Origin: a virus
Lineage: Duplodnaviria; Heunggongvirae; Uroviricota; Caudoviricetes
Reading direction: 5' to 3' (one strand)
Length of the DNA: 21,027 nucleotides
Virus record (IMG/VR): IMGVR_UViG_2690316152_000009
Under the pieces are notes generated by a model. It did not search any database and had not been told where the DNA came from. It saw only the letters and a list, made by a program, of their open reading frames with translations. This document shows, piece after piece, positions 1 through 13,696 of this stretch. The position numbers and the translations under genes are program-made. The stretch's first letter is position 1; each line of letters starts with the position of its first letter.

Positions 1-1002
1 TTACCCTCTATTGTCAAAAGGGTTCAATTCAACAGCAGCCTCTAAATGACCTGGAGCAAAATGCGCATAACGCATAGTCATTTTTATATCGCTATGCCCC
101 AGTATTTTTTGCAACACAAGAATATTTCCGCCCCGCATCATAAAATGACTGGCAAACGTGTGACGTAGCACATGAGTTAATTGCCCATCAGGAAGCTCGA
201 TCTTCGCTCTCTTAATTGCAGCGTCAAAAGCCTCATAACATGGTGAAAATAGCGCTCCTCGTTTTTTAGGAAGCATAGCCTGCAATTGAGGTGAAATCGG
301 TACAGTGCGGTTCTTCTTTCCTTTAGTTTTAACAAATGTGATTCGACCGGGCAGTACTTGAGATTGCTTTAATCCTTCTGCTTCACTCCACCGAGCACCC
401 GTCGCAAGCCCAATACGGACAACAACCCCCAAATCTTTATTCCGTGACTCATCACACGCAATCAGAAGGCGTTCAATCTCATCTACATACAGAAACGCCA
501 GTTCCTTTTCTTCCTCACGAAACTTGCGAATACCAGTCAGGGGGTTTTCACCAGACCACTCCCCAAGGCGCTTCAGTTCGGCAAAAACAGCATGTAGATA
601 TGACTGCTCGCGATTAACGGTTGCTTCACTAAGTTTTTTCTTCCCCTTGGGATTCCATTCTCCTGATAGCCTTCTTTCCCGATAAGTAGCAAACATATTT
701 TTGTCAAACTGAGAAGCAAATGGATCTCCCAGCCTGGAACAAATCGCCTCAAGTTTGACTTTGCGCTCTGCACCAGAGGACAAGGTTTTACCGTACATCT
801 CAAACCAACGAGCAATCAACTCAGAAAGACGAGGACCAGAACCATCTTGAAACTCGTCTCCAACTCTACTATTCATTAAACGGCGCTCATAAGAGAGCGC
901 CTCACTTTTTGTCGCAAACTGTTTACGAATGCGTTTTCCCGATGCCCCGTAGGGATAACATTCGCAAAGCCATTTACCTGATGGAATCTTACGAACCGAC
1001 AT
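1..1002 (-). CDS. int: P2-type tyrosine integrase
   Basis: 333-aa ORF; tyrosine-recombinase C-terminal motifs (HVLRHTFASHFMM, LGHSDIKMTMRYAHFAP) and P2 Int-like N-terminus (GKRIRKQF, FVKTKGKKNRTVPIS) recognised from memory of P2 Int; position at prophage end matches the P2 map. Confidence 0.9.
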   Translation of the reverse strand: MSVRKIPSGKWLCECYPYGASGKRIRKQFATKSEALSYERRLMNSRVGDEFQDGSGPRLSELIARWFEMYGKTLSSGAERKVKLEAICSRLGDPFASQFDKNMFATYRERRLSGEWNPKGKKKLSEATVNREQSYLHAVFAELKRLGEWSGENPLTGIRKFREEEKELAFLYVDEIERLLIACDESRNKDLGVVVRIGLATGARWSEAEGLKQSQVLPGRITFVKTKGKKNRTVPISPQLQAMLPKKRGALFSPCYEAFDAAIKRAKIELPDGQLTHVLRHTFASHFMMRGGNILVLQKILGHSDIKMTMRYAHFAPGHLEAAVELNPFDNRG

Positions 1003-4272: not shown

Positions 4273-4514
4273 CCATTCTGGACTACATCGCTGCCAATCC
4301 GGGTTGTAGCGGTGGAGAAATCGCCGCAGCACTGAATACACCAACCACAACCATTAATGCGGAGCTACGCCGTCTCTGGCGCAGCGGTTCAGTCATAAGA
4401 AAAGAGCGCAAAACAGGCGGTCGCTTTTCTTATCAGGTAAACCCGATGCCGTTTGGGTGTAGCAACCCACTAACCCAGATGTTCAACCAGCTACTGAGGG
4501 AAATCAGAGCATGA
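4269..4514 (+). CDS. Small putative winged-helix DNA-binding protein
   Basis: ATG 4269 overlaps upstream stop (ATGA), AGGAG SD 8 nt upstream; about 81 aa; MTILDYIAANPGCSGGEIAAALNTPTTTINAELRRLWRSGSV resembles wHTH regulators. Confidence 0.5.
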   Translation: MTILDYIAANPGCSGGEIAAALNTPTTTINAELRRLWRSGSVIRKERKTGGRFSYQVNPMPFGCSNPLTQMFNQLLREIRA

Positions 4515-5027: not shown

Positions 5028-7850
5028 ATGACGGCAGAGTACATCAGGGACTGGCAACAACCGCGCCACGCAGTGGGGCGTGAAGGAACGGGGATCCCCG
5101 CTCCTGAATCCGCGCTTTCCTCCTGGCTGGATGCCTACCGGGCAGAGAACGAGCGCCGCCAGGAAATGGCTGATGCGGCGTTCTCCGCCACGCCGCTGGG
5201 CAACCTGATTAATAAAAGCCTAGACGCACAGGAAAAACAGGACAAAACAATCACACTGGCAGGAGACGCCAGAAAACAGGCACGCGGCGCGGTAGATGAG
5301 GCCATGGCCTCACTGCGCCTGCTGCCGTCCTATCTGCGCGATCCGCTTATTCGCCACCTCTCCTTCCTGCGCAAAAAACAGGAAGCCGATCGTCAGCAAG
5401 GAAAAAACGCCAGGCAGGCAGAACGCTATGCGCGTGGGACCCTGCGCAAAATATTCGAACGTCTGGAGCGCACCGATCACCGCTGGCTGACATCGGGTTA
5501 TCGCTCCCTTGCCGGACGTGAACGCCTGGACGATTTGATTTACCTGCCGCAACTCAACAAACACCAGATACAGACGCTGGCCACCATGACGGCGGCGATG
5601 TTCAGCAGCACCTTCGAAAAACTCTGCGATGGTTTTGGCGCGACTGATGGCGAGCTGACCATGGATGTAACGCTGAAGGCGTATCAGATGCTGGCCCGCA
5701 TGGCGTTACACTTACACGCCATGCCTCCGCATTATGACGCACTGACAACAGACAAAGACCGGAGGCACGAACCGGACACAGAACTGCTGCCGGGCGCAAT
5801 CCTTCGCCTGACCTGTGCGGAATGGTGGAAACGCAAACTGTGGCTGTTACGTTGCGAGTGGAGAGAAGAACAACTCCGCGCCGCCTGTCTAGTTTCCAGA
5901 AAAACATCGCCCTATCTGAGCCAGGACGCGTTAAGCGAGTTTCGCGCACAGCGCGAGAAAACACGCGATTTCCTGAAAAGTTTCATGCTGGAAAATGAAG
6001 ACGGGTTCACGATTGATCTCGAGACGGTGTATTACGCGGGAGTAAGTAACCCGGTTCACCGTAAGGCAGAAATGATGGCCACCATGAAGGGGCTGGAACT
6101 TCTGGCCGAAGCCCGTGGCGACAAAGCGGTGTTTCTGACTGTCACCTGCCCGTCAAAATACCACGCCACAACGGAGAACGGTCATCCGAATCCCAAATGG
6201 AACGGGGCCACAATGCGCGACTCCAGCGATTACCTGGTTAACACGTTTTTTGCGGCGGTCCGCAAAAAACTGAACCGCGACGACCTGCGCTGGTATGGCA
6301 TCCGCACGGTGGAGCCTCATCATGACGGCACCGTGCACTGGCATATGATGGTCTTTGCACATCCGGAAGAAATCGACACCATTGTGTCCCATACCCGCGA
6401 TATTGCCATTCAGGAAGACCGCCACGAGCTGGGCAATGATATTACTCCGCGCTTTAAGGTGGAGTATGTCGACGGCTCAAAAGGCACGCCAACCAGCTAC
6501 ATCGCCACCTACATCGGAAAGAACCTGGACAGCCGCGCCGTGGATGGCATCGACCCGAAAACGGACAAGCCACGCGTGGACCACGAAACCGGAAAATCAA
6601 TGGCCGAGAGCGTGGAACGCGCCATCGGCTGGGCGCGTCTTCACCGCGTCCGCCAGTTCCAGTTCTTTGGTATCCCCTCCCGTCAGGTATGGCGTGAACT
6701 CCGCCGCCTTGCCAGTCAGATGGCCCGCAACCCGGAAGGTCCACAACGTCTGGAAAATGACGCAATGGATGCGGTACTCGCTGCCGCTGATGCCGGGTGT
6801 TTTGCCACCTACATTGAGAAACAGGGTGGCGTACTTGTTCCACGCAAAGACTACCTGATTCGCACCGCCTACGACCTCGCAGAAGAGCTGAACGATTACG
6901 GCGAGCAAAGCGTACAGATTTACGGGATCTGGTCGCCACAAATCGGGGAATCTTCCCGCGTGTGCACGCACCCGGATAACTGGAAGCTGGTAAGACGTAA
7001 ACCGGAAGCGGAAGACAGCGCCCGCGAAAATGGTTTTGACCTTCAGGGCGGCCCTGCCGCCCCTTGGACTCGTGGCAATAACTGTCCCCGTGTACAGGAA
7101 ACGGACAACAACGGGACAGAACAGCCGGAAGAACGGCCAGCACCGTGGCCGCAGCTCCCTGACGGCGTTGAAGTGAACGAATGGATGCGCTCACTGAAAC
7201 GGCACGAACGCCGGGCGCTGATGCGTTCGCTTCGTGACAAACAGGCAAAAAACAGCAGTGATGAAATGCAGAGCTGGACACAGAGCCGCAAACAGCAGCG
7301 GCCTTTGCCTGATAACCACGAATTACTCGCTAAAGAATGGCGGGAGTCTGCTGAATCTCTCGGCCTGCATATCGGTGAACAGCAGATGCAGCACCTGTTA
7401 CGGGGCGGCAGTCTGTACGTTGACGGCAGCATCATTGCACCGCAGGGATTTGAAATTGTACGCAAACCGGATACCCGACCGGACAGCCGGATCACGCAGC
7501 TCTGGCAGCGCCTGAGCCGTAACCACGGCGTAAGCAGCACGGAGATCCGCCATAACCCGGTCGCCAGCTATCTGGAACAGCTGGGGGCATCAGACCCCGA
7601 AGCCGCCGCACGCCTGGCATCCACACTTCAGCAAGACCAGAACACCATGAAAACACCCGTTACCGTGCTTTCTGACATGCTGCGCGCCATCCGCGACGCA
7701 GAGCACGCACAGAGAATCAGTGAAACCACTGAACGCGCCCGCCGCAAAGCAGACCTGCTGCGAGGTGGCCTGACCAGTGGAAACAAAAAACAGACAGAAA
7801 CGGGATTCACAAATCCCGTAAATGAGCAAAAAACGCGCCGCGATATATGA
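5028..7850 (+). CDS. A: Rolling-circle replication initiator endonuclease (P2 gpA family)
   Basis: 940-aa ORF; HUH motif (VHWHMMVFAH) and dual-tyrosine motif (YIATYIGKN) characteristic of phiX174/P2 A-type Rep proteins; start codon may lie downstream (for example ATG 5167); long low-complexity C-terminal extension. Confidence 0.9.
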   Translation: MTAEYIRDWQQPRHAVGREGTGIPAPESALSSWLDAYRAENERRQEMADAAFSATPLGNLINKSLDAQEKQDKTITLAGDARKQARGAVDEAMASLRLLPSYLRDPLIRHLSFLRKKQEADRQQGKNARQAERYARGTLRKIFERLERTDHRWLTSGYRSLAGRERLDDLIYLPQLNKHQIQTLATMTAAMFSSTFEKLCDGFGATDGELTMDVTLKAYQMLARMALHLHAMPPHYDALTTDKDRRHEPDTELLPGAILRLTCAEWWKRKLWLLRCEWREEQLRAACLVSRKTSPYLSQDALSEFRAQREKTRDFLKSFMLENEDGFTIDLETVYYAGVSNPVHRKAEMMATMKGLELLAEARGDKAVFLTVTCPSKYHATTENGHPNPKWNGATMRDSSDYLVNTFFAAVRKKLNRDDLRWYGIRTVEPHHDGTVHWHMMVFAHPEEIDTIVSHTRDIAIQEDRHELGNDITPRFKVEYVDGSKGTPTSYIATYIGKNLDSRAVDGIDPKTDKPRVDHETGKSMAESVERAIGWARLHRVRQFQFFGIPSRQVWRELRRLASQMARNPEGPQRLENDAMDAVLAAADAGCFATYIEKQGGVLVPRKDYLIRTAYDLAEELNDYGEQSVQIYGIWSPQIGESSRVCTHPDNWKLVRRKPEAEDSARENGFDLQGGPAAPWTRGNNCPRVQETDNNGTEQPEERPAPWPQLPDGVEVNEWMRSLKRHERRALMRSLRDKQAKNSSDEMQSWTQSRKQQRPLPDNHELLAKEWRESAESLGLHIGEQQMQHLLRGGSLYVDGSIIAPQGFEIVRKPDTRPDSRITQLWQRLSRNHGVSSTEIRHNPVASYLEQLGASDPEAAARLASTLQQDQNTMKTPVTVLSDMLRAIRDAEHAQRISETTERARRKADLLRGGLTSGNKKQTETGFTNPVNEQKTRRDI

Positions 7851-7895
7851 AGCGCGCATAAAACAGGCAAAAACGGGATTTCAGAATCCCGTAAA
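7785..7895. repeat. Two copies of a ~38-bp element each containing an 8-bp-stem hairpin (ACGGGATT-N4-AATCCCGT) at the 3' end of gene A
   Basis: Copy 1 at 7785-7822 (inside A coding sequence), copy 2 at 7858-7895 (after A stop); hairpins at 7800-7819 and 7873-7892; on the minus strand each is followed by a T-rich run. Confidence 0.5.
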
Positions 7896-7926
7896 CGATT
7901 AATTAATCAACATAAGGAAAAGCGAC

Positions 7927-8328
7927 ATGAAAATTTGTATCGATGACGGCTCCACCAACATCAAGCTGGCATGGACTGAGAACGGCGAACGCCGCAACGC
8001 CATCAGCCCGAACAGCTTCAAGTCGGAATGGTCTGCGCCGTTCGGTGGCACGCAGCCCGCGAACTACATGCTTGATGGCGTGCGCTATGGTTTTGATCCG
8101 GTCAGCGATCGCTTTGTCCAGACAACTGACACGCAATACCAGTACAGCGATGTGAATGTCATTGCCATTCATCACGCGCTGGTCAAATCAGGCATCACGC
8201 CACAGGAGGTGGATGTGGTTGTCACCCTGCCACTGAGCGAGTATTTCGACACAAACGCACAGCCGGACATAGCCAACATCAACCGCAAAAAAAGCCCAGG
8301 ATTCCCGGGGCGGTTCAGAGGAGAGTGA
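7927..8328 (+). pseudogene. ParM/StbA-like actin-family partition ATPase, N-terminal fragment only
   Basis: MKICIDDGSTNIKLAW...ISPNSFK...YSDVNVIAIHHALVKSGI resembles the N-terminal about 125 aa of plasmid ParM/StbA (about 320 aa); reading frame runs into a 22-bp IS terminal repeat and stops. Confidence 0.6.
8296..8317. repeat. Solo 22-bp copy of the IS629-like terminal inverted repeat
   Basis: CCAGGATTCCCGGGGCGGTTCA is identical to 20461-20482 (terminus of the partial IS element); no IS body adjacent. Confidence 0.6.
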
Positions 8329-8330
8329 GA

Positions 8331-8822
8331 ATGCAAATTTCACCGGTTACTCTTCGTGTTGCGAAGGCGTTTATATCCAGACATCACCGACACAATAAAC
8401 CCCCGGTGGGGCATAAATTCAGCATTGGTCTGAGAAATGATGCCGGAGAATTGATAGGTGTGGCGACAGCCGGTAGACCTGTTGCACGACATTTGGACGA
8501 TGGATTAACGCTTGAAGTAAATCGCACATGTACCACAGGAGAACGCAACGCTAACAGCGCACTTTATGGTGCTGTCTGGCGGGCAGCAAAGGCTATGGGT
8601 TATCAACGTTGTATTACGTACACCCAGGCAGATGAATCAGGAGCATCTCTCCGCGCAGCTGGTTTTGTTCGTGTGAAAGAGCTTCCTCCAAGAAAAAGCT
8701 GGGCGGAATCAAGCGTCGCCCTGCGGAGTAAACGCGATCCGGTCGGAAACGGTGGTGTTCCTCGTGTGCTCTGGGAAATCAGGAGAATGAGTACCACTGG
8801 CATTCGCATCAAAGGAGAGTGA
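8331..8822 (+). CDS. Hotspot cargo protein, 163 aa, possibly GNAT-fold (acetyltransferase-like)
   Basis: ATG 8331 preceded by GGAGAG SD; weak by-eye match to GNAT core (segment TTGERNANSALYGAVWRAAKAMGYQRCITYT then LRAAGFVRV); stop TGA lies inside the SD of the next gene. Confidence 0.55.
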   Translation: MQISPVTLRVAKAFISRHHRHNKPPVGHKFSIGLRNDAGELIGVATAGRPVARHLDDGLTLEVNRTCTTGERNANSALYGAVWRAAKAMGYQRCITYTQADESGASLRAAGFVRVKELPPRKSWAESSVALRSKRDPVGNGGVPRVLWEIRRMSTTGIRIKGE

Positions 8823-9091
8823 TATGGCAACTTTGACAAAAAAAGAACAAGCATGGTTGAGCGAATTACAGGACGTTCTTGATCGCTGCCCATCACCGAA
8901 AAAAATTGGTTTTTACACCATTGGCGATAAAAGCATTTACCTGTATGACCTGCGCCGCATGGATGAAATCATGGAGGCTCTTGATAATCGTTCGTCAATG
9001 GATTGGTGTGTTGCTGTCCATGATATGAATGCAGGGTTTGATGAAAAGATTTTGTTCCCCTCATCAGTTGAAAGCACAGCAGGATAAGGAC
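8811..9091 (+). repeat. Direct repeat copy 1 (281 bp) carrying the coupling junction and the whole 87-aa gene
   Basis: Identical to 9497-9777 except one synonymous C/T difference (8889 vs 9575). Confidence 0.9.
8824..9087 (+). CDS. Hotspot cargo protein, 87 aa (copy 1)
   Basis: ATG 2 nt after upstream TGA, SD AAAGGAGAG; MATLTKKEQAWLSELQDVLDRCPSPKK...; no recognised family. Confidence 0.6.
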   Translation: MATLTKKEQAWLSELQDVLDRCPSPKKIGFYTIGDKSIYLYDLRRMDEIMEALDNRSSMDWCVAVHDMNAGFDEKILFPSSVESTAG

Positions 9092-9097
9092 TAACAC

Positions 9098-9508
9098 ATG
9101 ACCACTATTACCAAAGAACGTATTGAATTGTTCATTAAAAATCCGCTTGAAAACGGGCTTACTCGTGACGAACAAATGGAACTGGCACGAATTGCACTGG
9201 CATCGCTGGAAGCAGAGGCAGTTATGTTCTGTATATCAGGACAAAATGTAGATTCAGAAGAACATGTATCAACCAGCAAAGCGGTTGTTGATGCCTGGGT
9301 TGAAGAATGGAATCAGGTTGACGGAAGTCCTGGCGAACCACTGTACAAAACTATGCCACTCTACTATCACGCTGCCTTGCCAGCGCCGGTAGTGCCGGAT
9401 GAAATGTATTGGCAGGATGCGCCAGTTGAAGGCAGCAGCAAAGCGGCTGCATACGCTACAGGCTGGAACGCCTGCCGCGCCGCTATGCTTCATGGGAAAG
9501 GAGAGTGA
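9098..9508 (+). CDS. Hotspot cargo protein, 136 aa, acidic
   Basis: ORF between the two repeat copies; its last codons (KGE-stop) lie in repeat copy 2; no recognised family. Confidence 0.6.
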   Translation: MTTITKERIELFIKNPLENGLTRDEQMELARIALASLEAEAVMFCISGQNVDSEEHVSTSKAVVDAWVEEWNQVDGSPGEPLYKTMPLYYHAALPAPVVPDEMYWQDAPVEGSSKAAAYATGWNACRAAMLHGKGE

Positions 9509-9777
9509 TATGGCAACTTTGACAAAAAAAGAACAAGCATGGTTGAGCGAATTACAGGACGTTCTTGATCGCTGTCCATCACCGAAAAAAATTGGTTTTT
9601 ACACCATTGGCGATAAAAGCATTTACCTGTATGACCTGCGCCGCATGGATGAAATCATGGAGGCTCTTGATAATCGTTCGTCAATGGATTGGTGTGTTGC
9701 TGTCCATGATATGAATGCAGGGTTTGATGAAAAGATTTTGTTCCCCTCATCAGTTGAAAGCACAGCAGGATAAGGAC
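9497..9777 (+). repeat. Direct repeat copy 2 (281 bp)
   Basis: See copy 1; offset 686 bp. Confidence 0.9.
9510..9773 (+). CDS. Hotspot cargo protein, 87 aa (copy 2, identical protein)
   Basis: Identical translation to 8824..9087; the ORF-track ORF 9399..9773 is the same frame read from an upstream in-frame start. Confidence 0.6.
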   Translation: MATLTKKEQAWLSELQDVLDRCPSPKKIGFYTIGDKSIYLYDLRRMDEIMEALDNRSSMDWCVAVHDMNAGFDEKILFPSSVESTAG

Positions 9778-9807
9778 CCAGCAAATATACACAACCTATA
9801 AAACACT

Positions 9808-9834
9808 AAAGCGCCTCAGGGGCGCTTTTTGTTT
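9808..9834 (+). terminator. Rho-independent terminator closing the cargo cassette
   Basis: GC-rich hairpin AGCGCC-tcagg-GGCGCT (9810-9826) followed by TTTTTGTTT. Confidence 0.7.
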
Positions 9835-10359
9835 GCACAAAAGTGCACAAATTTGCACAATTTTTTTGAACGACTTTTTACCCTTCCGGCCCGCATGGCG
9901 GCTGGATCCGTCAAGGATCCGTGCGTGCACAAAAAAACGCGCTTTTTCTGCGCGCAGGTGACGGGGGAACAGCCCGCGTTTCAGGGGGTAAATAGCATTC
10001 CCTGAACGATGTCGCAGAGACACAACAGAATGGCCATATTTCTCACGCTGAGCATGAAAAAGGCGTGAGGGCTTTTGATTTGATGGGGTGAAAGGTAAGG
10101 CCGTCAAAATCGCACTGAGGCAGCGAGAACATACAGTCAACGCGGTGGAATTGCGTAAGAGTCTGACCGTCGATGGTGGCGATAAACTGGAAGGCGTCGT
10201 GAAATTATCTGATTGATACAGGAGCTGGAGAGCCGGGGCATAAATTTTTTATGCCCCGGCGAAGCAGCAGACAAGCGAAGCGCGTCAGCGATACGGCACC
10301 TTGCCGACCATACTTCATAAGTGCAAAATACGAGCAAAGAAATCAATGGAGGCTGTCTT
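9835..10359. other. About 0.5-kb non-coding region, candidate cos/packaging and regulatory region
   Basis: No credible ORF; lies where P2 cos sits (between hotspot and Q); TGCACAA x3 at 10-bp phasing (9834-9860), GGATCCGT x2 (9904-9922), perfect 13-bp-stem palindrome (10232-10260); cos sequence itself not identified. Confidence 0.3.
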
Positions 10360-10884
10360 ATGGTCATTAATTACAAGCAGTTAAGAGAAAAACGGGAGCA
10401 GGTAAAGGAGAGCTTTCGCCGCAATGAAGATCTGACCCCGCTTGTACGCCTTGCCCAGGGCATTGTTGATGCTTATGAAATCTCGCTGGAGCTGCCATCA
10501 CAGACCTGGACAGATAGCGACGGTAATCGCCAGCATTACGTTTCATGCGGACTGGAAGCAGCCGAAGGATTTCGCAGAATGCCTTTATCCCAGATCCCTG
10601 CCGCTACCCCCAAAGCATGGGGCAGCAATGATGAGCGAAAACTGACTTTTAGTATTGAAACGGTGGTTGACGACACACCTGGCGAAGTCGCGTTCGTACA
10701 CACTCCTGTTTCGATCGCAATGTATAACGATGAAATACAGGTTCGCGTTAATAATAATATCGTGCCACTTAAAGAAGGTAATTCACCCTACACCACCGTT
10801 TGTGAAGCCATTCAATATTACGTTCTCTCTGAAATTGATAATCTCAAGCCTGACGGCACCCAGAAAATGGTTCAACTCTGGTAA
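10360..10884 (+). CDS. Stand-alone hotspot ORF, 174 aa, unknown function
   Basis: ATG 10360 with GGAGG SD 7 nt upstream; followed by bidirectional terminator; no recognised motif. Confidence 0.55.
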   Translation: MVINYKQLREKREQVKESFRRNEDLTPLVRLAQGIVDAYEISLELPSQTWTDSDGNRQHYVSCGLEAAEGFRRMPLSQIPAATPKAWGSNDERKLTFSIETVVDDTPGEVAFVHTPVSIAMYNDEIQVRVNNNIVPLKEGNSPYTTVCEAIQYYVLSEIDNLKPDGTQKMVQLW

Positions 10885-10885
10885 A

Positions 10886-10917
10886 AAGGACAGCCCCATC
10901 ACGGGGCTGTTTTTTCA
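10886..10917. terminator. Bidirectional intrinsic terminator between the hotspot ORF and portal gene Q
   Basis: Hairpin CAGCCCC-atcac-GGGGCTG (10891-10909) flanked by AAAAA upstream and TTTTTT downstream; overlaps the last codons of Q. Confidence 0.6.
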
Positions 10918-11945
10918 TCAAGAAGAGCATAAGAGTTAAAACGGATCACCTCTTCGCCAAGCCAGTCATTGATGTGCTTCATAGCCTCCATGACGGGCAT
11001 CAGCTCGTTAATTGCGTAAACCCGCGCTGCCTTCTCCACATCGCCAAACGCACTTTTTTCGCCCGGCATCGCCCCCATCAGTTGCGGCGGAACGCGGTGC
11101 GCAGCCAGCACATCATCACGGGATGCCGCCTTAACATTCATGAATTCATCTTTTGCGGTGATCTGCTGGAACGGCAAAATTTGCACCCCCTCTTTGCCCC
11201 CGTTGGGCGCATGAATGAGCACGTTTTTAAACGCACCACCACCACGTGCCCCCTGTAGCGTTTCTTTCAGGGAGTCCATGCTTTCGCGGTTTACCTGCGC
11301 TGCACCGATGTAGATGATGCACCCGGCGTGGGATCCGTTGTCGTAGTACAGTTTTCTGAACATGTCCGCCGAATGAGAAAGGCTGGCCGAGAGTAATGCG
11401 CCAAGATATTCCGGCATGCCGTAGATTTCCTGGTTAATATCCGGATTCATCAGGTGGCACACTTTGCCAGGACGAAACTGAAACGCGTCCTTGCCATCCT
11501 GCACATACCACCATGATTCAAGATCGCTTCCGCGTCGCATGTATTTCGCCAGGGCGTGCCGTAATTTAAGCGGTTCGCCGAGCATATTGCTTCGAAGCTC
11601 AAGGAATGCGTTACCGAACACAAACCAGTCCAGCGCCAGCGCCGAGAAATCCTGCCGGGAAAGCAGCGGGTGCGGGATGTAGCAACCGAGTAATACATTG
11701 CGCTTAAAGTAAAGCGCAGACTGATGCCAGGACGTTTGCCGGGCAGCTCTTGCCAGACCGTACCAGTCCACCGGGGTTTCATACCACCGCCCGTTATCAG
11801 CACAGTACATATTGTCCAGCAGGTCATGCCCGGTCAGGCGATAAGGACCATCAAATGTGAATGCACTGAGCGATGATTCTTTCCTGAGCGCATCAGCGAG
11901 ATCAATGCGTGAACTCATGCGCACTTTTTTATTTTTTCTGCTCAT
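10899..11945 (-). CDS. Q: Portal protein (P2 gpQ family)
   Basis: 348-aa ORF; size, position and P2-like order (Q-P divergent from O); recognised by similarity to P2-type portal from memory. Confidence 0.85.
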   Translation of the reverse strand: MSRKNKKVRMSSRIDLADALRKESSLSAFTFDGPYRLTGHDLLDNMYCADNGRWYETPVDWYGLARAARQTSWHQSALYFKRNVLLGCYIPHPLLSRQDFSALALDWFVFGNAFLELRSNMLGEPLKLRHALAKYMRRGSDLESWWYVQDGKDAFQFRPGKVCHLMNPDINQEIYGMPEYLGALLSASLSHSADMFRKLYYDNGSHAGCIIYIGAAQVNRESMDSLKETLQGARGGGAFKNVLIHAPNGGKEGVQILPFQQITAKDEFMNVKAASRDDVLAAHRVPPQLMGAMPGEKSAFGDVEKAARVYAINELMPVMEAMKHINDWLGEEVIRFNSYALLDEKTAP

Positions 11946-13696
11946 CAGAACTCCATAACTGTGAAACGCTCGTTTTCTCCTTCGCCGCCAATTGGTTCGT
12001 TAATGACAGCAAGCATGGTTGCCCACGCAAGGTCGCCGTGGCTGATCCCCCTCGCGCGGTCCGTTTCGTAAGTGATAAAGCCGCCCGGTGTTTTCACCTT
12101 ACGCACGGCGTTAAAGGCTGCGACCAGCTCGCGTTCGGCGCGATCGTATTCCCACCGCCCGGCACGCATTATTTGCAGCATTTTCAGTACCAGCGACCGT
12201 TTTGATGACAGCGTGAAGGTGTACGGAATAGCAGCAGGGAAAAACCGTTTCACTATCTGATAAACAGCCTCCCCGTTCCCGCCCGTCACATCAATGCCGA
12301 TGTGTTCCACGTTGTAGCGACACGTGAACTCTTCAATGACTCTGGCCTGTTCTTCAAACTCCAGCCCCTGAACGCGTCGCGTCTCCACCGTTCGAAAACG
12401 GCCACCAGGAACAGACGGAGGAACCACCACGGACACAGCGCCGCTGTCGCCGTTGCCACTGCTGCCGTTTGCGTCATACCCAATCCATACCGGACGATTC
12501 CCCATCGGGCGGGGAGCAAAAGGTTTCCAGTCTTTCCAGTCGTCGTATCCGTCAACACCACAGCCAATCAGGATATTCAGGTTAAATGCCGATTCCCCTT
12601 CGCGGACAAACTCACACATATAGAGATTGAGGAACTCGTCTTCGGTGTTTTCATCACGAATTTCATCAATATCGGTGTGTTTCCAGCCGTGATTAACCAC
12701 ATCTTCCAGCGTGACAATTTGCCGCCACGTCCGGTCAGGGCAGATAAGCCCGTTATGCAGCGTTTTCCAGTCCACAGAAAAACGCTGGCGTTTATGCGTG
12801 GCCTTTTTCTCGTTCCAGCGGTCGCCGTTCCAGTAGGCGTATGCCTCGTGCGTTTCGGTGGATGGCGTGGAGAAGTAGGTGCGCCGCAGTCCGCTGAGGG
12901 TTGCCATAGCGCCAGCCACCTTGCGCAGTTCAGCAAAGCGACTGACCCAGAAAAATTCATCAAAATAAAAATTGCCCGTATAGGACTGCGCCGACGCAGC
13001 AGAAGTGCCGAGAAAATGCAGCTCTGCGCCGTTGGAGAGGATGATTTTATCGCCCCCTTTCAGCTCCACATCAACTTCAGCCGCGGCCTTCTGAATAATG
13101 CTTTTAAACTGGAACGCCTGACGACGCGACGCAGACAAAAAAATCTGGTTACGCTGGTAAGGTTGCGCCACATCGTCACGCAGCGCCATCAGCAGTGCTT
13201 CCTGTGCAAAATACCAGGTCGCGCCAATCTGTCGGGATTTCAGGATCATCCTGTTACGTATCCCGGCTTCCCTGCAAAGGGTCAGGGAGTCAAACCAGCC
13301 CCGCTGATGCCACTCCAGCCTGCTGATGATTTTTTCCCGCAGTGCGACAATCTGTTCCGGCGTGAAATGATTTTTGAGTTTTTTCGCCCGGCCTTTCTTT
13401 CCTGTGGCCGTCGCATCCGGCTGGCCATCATGCATTTTTTTAAGCTGCCGGGTCAGCAGGTCTATTTCCTTAAAGTCACCGCCTGTTTTATTCTGTTTTT
13501 CAGTAAGCTGGATGAGGCGCGCATCGATGGACTGCGTGACACGCTGCACGGGTGGCGTTTCATCCCACTGGTCGCGTTTTTTCCACGCATAAATCGTGTT
13601 CGGGTTTATTCCCATCAGACGTGATATTTCTGCGGGCGGATAACCCTGCCAGTAAAGTTGCCGCGCACGCTGGCGCACAAAAGCGTCCTGAATCAT
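11945..13696 (-). CDS. P: Terminase large (ATPase) subunit (P2 gpP family)
   Basis: 583-aa ORF; ILKSRQIGATWYF ATPase motif typical of P2-type terminases; N-terminal HTH-like region. Confidence 0.9.
   Translation of the reverse strand: MIQDAFVRQRARQLYWQGYPPAEISRLMGINPNTIYAWKKRDQWDETPPVQRVTQSIDARLIQLTEKQNKTGGDFKEIDLLTRQLKKMHDGQPDATATGKKGRAKKLKNHFTPEQIVALREKIISRLEWHQRGWFDSLTLCREAGIRNRMILKSRQIGATWYFAQEALLMALRDDVAQPYQRNQIFLSASRRQAFQFKSIIQKAAAEVDVELKGGDKIILSNGAELHFLGTSAASAQSYTGNFYFDEFFWVSRFAELRKVAGAMATLSGLRRTYFSTPSTETHEAYAYWNGDRWNEKKATHKRQRFSVDWKTLHNGLICPDRTWRQIVTLEDVVNHGWKHTDIDEIRDENTEDEFLNLYMCEFVREGESAFNLNILIGCGVDGYDDWKDWKPFAPRPMGNRPVWIGYDANGSSGNGDSGAVSVVVPPSVPGGRFRTVETRRVQGLEFEEQARVIEEFTCRYNVEHIGIDVTGGNGEAVYQIVKRFFPAAIPYTFTLSSKRSLVLKMLQIMRAGRWEYDRAERELVAAFNAVRKVKTPGGFITYETDRARGISHGDLAWATMLAVINEPIGGEGENERFTVMEF

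Follow-up and report, generated by a model that had tools for sequence, protein, structure and literature searches.

Two copies of an 87-aa gene in the gpA-gpQ hotspot of a P2-like prophage: a recent recombination product with a chimeric neighbour gene

The window (the whole stretch of DNA analysed, 21,027 nt, IMG/VR record IMGVR_UViG_2690316152_000009) is a P2-like prophage, whose nearest named phages are of the P88 type (Xuanwuvirus). Its early genes are placed between the integrase (1-1002) and gpA (5028-7850), and past the terminase follow the scaffold, capsid, small terminase, gpL and lysis genes. The array described here sits between the gpA endonuclease and the gpQ portal, where a truncated parM, an XF1762/Mom-like gene, an 87-aa gene, a 136-aa gene, a second 87-aa gene and a terminator-like hairpin succeed one another. 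The features of this region are as follows:

1-1002, minus strand: prophage integrase, the sole integrase in the window
5028-7850, plus strand: gpA replication endonuclease (Pfam Phage_GPA, E=3.9e-131), left border of the hotspot and first gene of the operon
7927-8328, plus strand: truncated ParM, the N-terminal 122 residues and a foreign tail (Pfam StbA_N, residues 1-123 of a 158-position profile)
8296-8317, plus strand: footprint (22 nt) left at the parM deletion joint by the terminal inverted repeat of an IS3-family element
8319-8333, plus strand: inter-cassette linker AGGAGAGTGAGAATG before XF1762 (three matches in the window against 0.01 expected)
8331-8822, plus strand: XF1762-family/Mom-like protein of 163 aa, cargo of module 1 (NCBIfam XF1762_fam, E=5e-61)
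8811-9091, plus strand: repeat copy 1 (linker, 87-aa gene and 4 nt)
8824-9087, plus strand: 87-aa gene, copy 1 (phrog_1714; PHROG 1714, E=1e-50)
9098-9508, plus strand: 136-aa gene of the Ea22/DUF551 superfamily, chimeric, cargo of module 2 (PHROG 5117, 60 and 660)
9497-9777, plus strand: repeat copy 2
9510-9773, plus strand: 87-aa gene, copy 2, protein identical to that of copy 1
9808-9828, plus strand: intrinsic-terminator-like hairpin with a T run, closing the operon
10360-10884, plus strand: conserved hypothetical gene of 174 aa (phrog_5091; PHROG match, and a RefSeq CDS in the homologous locus L001)
10899-11945, minus strand: gpQ portal (Pfam Phage_portal in homologous loci, RefSeq annotation), right border of the hotspot
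10899-13696, minus strand: portal and large terminase

Both a repeat search and direct comparison show that 8811-9091 and 9497-9777, each of 281 nt and separated by 686 bp from start to start, differ at a single site, repeat position 79, which is C at 8889 and T at 9575. This site is the third base of the Cys22 codon of the 87-aa ORF (TGC/TGT), and the difference is therefore synonymous. The chance expectation for a near-identity of 281 nt within 21 kb is zero. Identity is lost sharply at each border of both copies, and the flanks are unrelated. Each copy begins 13 nt 5' of the ATG of the 87-aa gene and ends 4 nt past its stop, leaving the ORF intact on both sides (8824-9087 and 9510-9773) with identical proteins, and the starts of the copies fall in the K-G-E-stop codons of the XF1762 gene and of the 136-aa gene, respectively. 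An earlier, sequence-only reading had described a 281-bp direct repeat with one synonymous C/T difference, each copy of which opens in the last codons of a different upstream gene and holds the full 87-aa ORF, and these descriptions were borne out. A search for an RNA element in the repeat gave no Rfam match.

The first gene after gpA is a remnant: homology to full-length parM ends at 8292, and the gene is a pseudogene in the RefSeq annotation of E. coli 190693. The footprint at the deletion joint (8296-8317) is identical to 20461-20482, where a truncated minus-strand IS ends, and it is found in all double-module loci and in the 190693 locus (L001). The ParM cassette in relatives of the window prophage is of the type that has been reported in roughly one in four P2-like phages (PMC9122126; PMC13586616).

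The cargo of the first module belongs to the XF1762 family NF045478, which it matches over residues 3-136 with 204.7 bits against a curated cut-off of 50 bits; the 27 C-terminal residues are not covered by the profile and close with the common GIRIKGE tail. The protein also matches PHROG 1384, Mom-like (E=4e-42), and may thus be likened to the Mom protein of phage Mu, since it falls in the PHROG family of "Mom-like DNA modification protein". Unlike Mu Mom, however, it gives only a partial and sub-threshold match to the Pfam Mom family (PF25680, 22.4 bits against a gathering cut-off of 27.1), so the PHROG name is all that links the two. No solved structure of an XF1762 relative was found.

The family of the 87-aa protein is limited to Enterobacterales and has 15 invariant residues. 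An AF2 model with a pLDDT of 84 gives a confident in silico fold; the protein had no family match, and no named fold was found among solved or viral predicted structures. As for the 136-aa gene, it has 3793 mosaic relatives annotated as DUF551 or ead/Ea22-like. The protein itself matches no Pfam family at E<=0.1, including PF13935 and PF04448, and is without the DUF551 C-terminal domain that is present in many relatives. PF13935 or PF04448 is found in homologues that have modules in common with it, which makes the protein a fragmentary mosaic relative and not a full member. A second gene of 136 aa, in locus L010, was considered as a relative and proved to be unrelated, the common length being a coincidence. 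At E<=0.1, the PADLOC defence models gave no match for the ParM', XF1762, 87-aa, 136-aa or 174-aa proteins, and toxin-antitoxin models gave none among the cargo proteins. A literature search on XF1762, phrog_1714 and the RefSeq accessions returned no paper.

A search of the plus strand between the cassette genes (8367-9807) detected nothing that resembles a promoter or a terminator, and therefore the string is most likely transcribed together with gpA. The array would then amount to a set of translationally coupled, co-transcribed accessory genes 3' of gpA, its effect being to stack two cargo genes and to double the 87-aa gene.

The K-G-E-stop tail, ATCAAAGGAGAGTGA, carries the Shine-Dalgarno sequence, and hence the ribosome-binding site, of the 87-aa gene. 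It also lies 5' of XF1762 and of other genes of the region, and in related loci the full linker borders XF1762 on both sides. To judge by this distribution, the tail behaves as a recurrent inter-cassette linker. Its presence before XF1762 marks it as a linker rather than as a sign that genes are paired.

The double form is found well beyond the window. The exact 136-aa sequence occurs on 82 contigs, of which the longest measures 4.8 Mb; among the 24 examined for context, the order is XF1762-87-136-87 without exception. The double form is present, too, in one IMG/VR contig and one metagenome assembly, and is absent from 5426 complete RefSeq E. coli genomes. The carriers are not clones: outside a stretch of identity at about 6972-11744, they diverge from the window either in the terminase/scaffold region or, by around 5%, in the 5' portion of gpA. 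The C/T difference is phased alike in five of seven loci, while the other two have C in both copies. The worry that the repeat might be an artefact of assembly is largely answered by this recurrence in many independent assemblies.

Single-module forms, which the sequence-only reading had proposed to look for in related prophages, were found both as XF1762-87 and as 137aa-87. The first of these (variant A) is represented by E. coli 190693 and phage PhiR44_2; the former has the truncated parM of the window, whereas in the latter parM is intact. The second (variant B), in which a 137-aa gene precedes the 87-aa gene, is represented by E. coli 266917_2 and isolate 30821_1#280. In a third layout (variant C, XF1762-87-86aa), found in UTI89, the backbone is again P2-like. 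With the double form and with forms that have parM only, gene content between gpA and gpQ thus varies over at least four layouts. Strain 266917_2 also contains, besides its variant B prophage, a second P2-like prophage with XF1762-87; the co-residence of two such prophages was counted in favour of the crossover model set out below.

The two arms of the array have different relatives. On the left, the variant A locus L001 is identical to the window over 7055-9091 except at 8889. On the right, the variant B locus L013 is identical over 9190-13600 except at 9196, i.e., it has one mismatch in 4411 nt. On the opposite arms, L013 has 11 mismatches in 493 nt (7800-8292), and L001 has 23 differing sites from 10618 onward. 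At sites 10618, 10698 and 10704, all the double forms and both variant B loci have T/A/T, whereas variant A loci have C/G/G or C/A/T. There is no difference between L001 and the window over 9497-10617, so that the change of ancestry on the right arm, which rests on few genomes, is first visible 850 nt beyond the repeat. Each junction has identical DNA on one side and unrelated DNA on the other. Two further features lie where the arms meet:

9092-9196, plus strand: spacer and N-terminal module (MTTITKER...ELARIAL), 105 nt, of lambdoid type, 3' of the 87-aa gene
9197-9204, plus strand: putative crossover interval inside the 28-nt IALASLEAE joint (9190-9217)

The stretch 9092-9196, which includes a 10-nt spacer, belongs to neither variant A nor variant B. 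Its first part (9092-9162) is identical to lambdoid loci L003-L006, and 9092-9204 matches the gene 3' of the 87-aa gene in the lambdoid locus L014 except at 9097 and 9168; the A at 9168 is an allele of the 136-aa gene that is absent from all sampled relatives. The junction of a P2-type 87-aa gene with the following spacer, AGCACAGCAGGATAAGGACTAACACATGAC, is present in UTI89. The A at 9196 is the allele of the left-parent type, identity with variant B (L013) runs from 9197, and the L014 type departs at 9205. Arms of different ancestry (L001 and L013) that are joined within a common 28-nt stretch are what would be expected of an unequal crossover.

We lean, on balance, towards the explanation that XF1762-87-136-87 resulted from a single homologous crossover, out of register, between two P2-like genomes of the P88 type. 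In the gpA-gpQ hotspot, the parents would have had the same 87-aa gene with different cargo next to it. The order in the left parent would have been [truncated parM]-XF1762-87 and then an Ea22-like gene starting MTTITKER, as in the variant C layout, and the right parent would have had, as in variant B, a 137-aa Ea22-like gene 5' of the 87-aa gene. The joint of the Ea22-like genes, ELARIALASLEAE, would follow the 87-aa gene in the left parent and precede it in the right parent, and therefore the exchange would have been out of register. A crossover at 9197-9204 in this joint would have joined the Ea22-like genes of both parents as the 136-aa chimera, with an 87-aa gene remaining on each side. 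In this way, one event could account for the repeat, for a chimera confined to the double forms and for the change of ancestry at the junction. Judged by its sequence, then, the 136-aa gene is a chimera born of the event that doubled the 87-aa gene. The C/T difference would go back to the two parents, UTI89 having C and variant B having T, and the two loci with C in both copies might be due to later conversion or to assembly consensus.

The right parent (variant B) has been seen as sequence, and the left parent only as a layout, in UTI89, where the N-terminal module is different. The predicted left parent, with truncated parM, XF1762-87-MTTITKER and the same 3' end of the 87-aa gene, is absent from the 5426 E. 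coli genomes, from IMG/VR and from the JGI metagenomes; the exact 40-nt junction between the 87-aa and 136-aa genes was found only in one double-form contig and in one unrelated metagenome contig of 2.5 kb. The second P2-like prophage of 266917_2 was also considered as left parent and was rejected, as it has a different parM deletion and an 87-aa allele of lambdoid type.

The exact left parent and the enzyme responsible would both be matters of deduction. The exchange may have been carried out by RecA, or else by an annealase of the relaxed, Rad52-like kind supplied by a lambdoid prophage in the same host. The joint that the sampled parental types have in common is 28 nt long with three mismatches, which is short for RecA. 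Being both short and imperfect, it suggests that a relaxed phage annealase of the kind studied by De Paepe et al. may have acted there. Indeed, homology-driven exchange that tolerates divergence has been demonstrated experimentally in temperate phages (De Paepe et al. 2014, PMC3945230).

Another explanation, which is possible though clearly less probable, is that a 686-bp unit (the 136-aa gene and an 87-aa gene) was inserted into a variant A prophage, either as a small circle excised from a lambdoid prophage via the N-terminal repeats on either side of its 87-aa gene or by a double crossover within the 87-aa gene. It would fit the fact that the variant A locus L001 corresponds, at 100% identity over the local 2.6 kb, to the window minus exactly 686 bp. 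Lambdoid prophages could supply such a unit: in L005, the order is [136 homologue]-87-[55-aa gene], and the 134 nt that open the two flanking genes form a repeat with a period of 686 bp; over 9197-9520, moreover, lambdoid loci L004-L006 do not differ from the window. Yet both 87-aa copies are of P2 type at repeat positions 25, 39, 40, 51, 268, 271 and 274, where the sampled lambdoid prophages mostly differ. Moreover, the right arm past 10618 has the variant B alleles, so a second, unrelated exchange would be needed.

That the double form is ancestral and that the single-module forms are deletions between the 281-bp copies seems improbable. Deletion between direct repeats of this length is an easy event, and L001, which has the IS footprint at the parM truncation, has locally the very structure predicted for the product. 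The right arm of L001, however, has variant-A alleles. Furthermore, the N-terminal module of variant B (MTTFTDKE) differs and cannot be derived by deletion, and variant A with intact parM exists, whereas parM is truncated in every double form. The sequence-only reading had predicted that recombination between the copies would precisely delete the 136-aa gene; geometrically this holds, but none of the loci found is a proven deletion derivative, the 190693 locus being a local match with another right arm.

It is very doubtful that the 87-aa protein is the obligate partner, e.g., an antitoxin, chaperone or regulator, of any gene that happens to lie upstream, and that the array consists of two selected cognate pairs. 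Such a role would be in keeping with the close coupling of the genes, since in all 101 copies surveyed (in 93 loci) the 87-aa gene starts 1 nt past the upstream stop and has its Shine-Dalgarno sequence in the last codons of the upstream gene; both single pairs, moreover, stand alone in related prophages. The upstream proteins are, however, of 36 distinct and unrelated sorts: they comprise XF1762, many Ea22-like mosaics ending in GIRIKGE, DIGIKGE or MLHGKGE, and a 45-aa hydrophobic peptide ending in KEN. In P2-like prophages of Pectobacterium, it is gpA itself that lies directly upstream of the 87-aa homologue, and the K-G-E-stop tail, as noted above, precedes XF1762 too. The absence of matches to defence and toxin-antitoxin models also speaks against partnership. 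Downstream, the 101 copies have 45 distinct neighbours, most of them starting MTTITKER or MTTFTDKE, and in Edwardsiella and Klebsiella prophages a gene with a similar N-terminal module lies 10-11 nt 3' of the 87-aa homologue. No partner gene is thus constant across the 87-aa homologues, and these varied contexts imply that the upstream gene is not a conserved partner. The conserved neighbour across genera, if any, would be the downstream Ea22-like N-terminal module. The earlier proposal of a shared partner for two unrelated upstream proteins is accordingly not supported.

An assembly artefact, in which a short-read path was threaded through an 87-aa gene common to the P2-like and lambdoid prophages of one genome, is unlikely and has the smallest chance of these readings. 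In its favour, the carrier genomes are likely to have been assembled for the most part as drafts from short reads, an IMG/VR contig (L028) breaks off precisely at 9087, where copy 1 of the gene ends, and none of the complete RefSeq E. coli genomes has the array. Against it, the same structure recurs on differing backbones and in a 4.8-Mb contig, the C/T phase is mostly shared, the parental types sampled are perfectly identical at the switch over only 8 nt, too little for a k-mer graph error, and the A at 9168 is in no sampled relative. Integron-like or transposon-like mobility was rejected because the locus has no recombinase (the only integrase is that at 1-1002) and no structured ends, there being no inverted repeats at the linkers, and because plain homology explains the junctions.

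The repeat array is therefore real and recent, a product of recombination in a known hotspot, and the repeat is a by-product of that recombination, not a device. The sequence-only reading had seen in the locus a two-module array that arose by recent duplication or cassette shuffling; the two-module array and the homologous recombination of cassettes stand, while plain duplication does not, given that the arms differ in ancestry and the 136-aa gene is chimeric.

The region between gpA and gpQ was described as a cos-proximal diversity hotspot of P2-like phages by Rousset et al. (2022, PMC9122126), and again in a 2026 NAR study (PMC13586616). The array shares with this hotspot (old/tin) its position near cos between gpA and the portal gene and the turnover of its cargo by recombination. 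It differs in that the cargo has no defence match and appears to be co-transcribed with gpA and not to constitute autonomous defence cassettes. Neither paper, in the passages searched, yielded a case of two cassettes stacked by unequal crossover (PMC9122126; PMC13586616). A second resemblance is to the exo-xis/ea22 region of lambdoid phages (PMC10834534, PMC7093339), to which the 87-aa and 136-aa genes are native, and in which ea22 genes are reported to be mosaic (PMC10834534). In lambdoid prophages, the two genes lie between Ea22-like genes and xis-int, and their neighbours are block mosaics with common N-terminal modules. Here, unlike there, the genes are in a P2-like backbone.

The array also recalls the modular theory of phage evolution, which is reportedly due to Botstein. 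In lambdoid phages, "boundary sequences" have been described as exchange points, and the exchange points here similarly lie at short gene-border sequences, namely the K-G-E-stop/Shine-Dalgarno linker and the IALASLEAE joint. The difference from the usual modular exchange is that this one was out of register and that a gene was duplicated instead of a module being replaced. One might go further and suppose that the linker and ELARIALASLEAE are kept as the joints of a homology-guided cassette-exchange system common to lambdoid and P2-like phages, although we give this little credence. Were it true, the 87-aa gene and the following N-terminal module would be a conserved core that takes in variable cargo in frame, this core would be an early-expressed regulator or an anti-defence pair, and the window would show the system in the middle of an out-of-register exchange.

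The array is rather a well-resolved instance of ordinary phage mosaicism and not a new kind of system. Its interest lies in a reshuffling of cargo, in the main accessory hotspot of P2-like phages, for which the parental types, the breakpoint (to within 8 nt) and the product can be named. It shows genes of the lambdoid exo-xis/ea22 region entering P2-like phages, and short gene-border linkers, besides whole flanking genes, serving as exchange points. The mechanism of exchange in P2/P4 hotspots, which the 2026 study left open (PMC13586616), is one on which the array bears. It also flags the widespread 87-aa early gene as a recurrent anchor for recombination.

The parM gene is truncated exactly at a bare 22-nt IS end (8296-8317), a footprint common to E. 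coli 190693 and to all of the double forms, that is, the prophages in which the 87-aa gene lies on both sides of the 136-aa gene. This IS end belongs to a 29-nt direct repeat (8296-8324 and 20461-20489), within which lies an IS3-family terminal inverted repeat, presumably of an IS629/IS1203-like element to judge from the IS629 end sequence. Since the bare end coincides with the truncation point, an IS-associated deletion probably removed the 3' part of parM along with parR, a 104-aa gene and the ClpX zinc-finger gene.

The P2-like late region ends after the lysis genes, and over 18651-21027 it gives way to a NanS-like gene, a truncated IS copy and then a fragment of an effector gene:

18651-19880: NanS-like sialate O-acetylesterase (SASA and DUF1737)
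~19800-20482, minus strand: truncated IS3-family copy with OrfA (HTH_Tnp_1), a truncated OrfB (HTH_21) and an ALIL pseudoknot
20031-20147: ALIL frameshift pseudoknot (Rfam), within the truncated IS copy
20497-21027: C-terminal part of a type III effector of the SseK/NleB family, 176 residues that cover positions 142-317 of the 317-position profile

The window has no tail genes. Its prophage could be a remnant fused to lambdoid or effector DNA, which suggests an EPEC/EHEC-type host. A 28-nt inverted repeat (4400-4427 and 13472-13499), with 79% complementarity and 9 kb between its arms, is probably due to chance.

The 136-aa protein ends in …YATGWNACRAAMLHGKGE-stop (9480-9508), a C-terminus that matches the interior of longer DUF551 proteins (…YATGWNDCREAMLQSGNF…), the comparison being with locus L049, which carries the 87-aa gene, and related loci. 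From this match, it appears that the 87-aa cassette and its linker, the KGE-stop/Shine-Dalgarno sequence between cassettes, were joined in midway along a longer DUF551-type gene. At around 42-43% G+C (8800-9250 and 9550-9850), the 87-aa gene lies below the 52-60% of gpA and of the portal region, which fits with imported accessory DNA. In at least 24 lambdoid contigs among loci L015-L093, a 45-aa hydrophobic peptide (MIPISPLILVWGIGKIIEPV...KEN), which may be a small membrane protein, is encoded directly upstream of the 87-aa gene, and its gene has a linker variant of its own (AAGGAAAACTGAT).

The ORF list also contains a 124-aa ORF (9399-9773), which begins inside the 136-aa gene and runs through the second 87-aa copy in the same frame; most likely this is an artefact that arises because no in-frame stop intervenes, rather than a fusion protein. 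Finally, the exact 136-aa protein (9098-9508) occurs in some public records labelled Salmonella enterica, including serovar Typhi. Yet the DNA around the gene is 100% identical to that of E. coli prophages; either the assemblies could be wrongly labelled, or the gene could truly have spread across genera.
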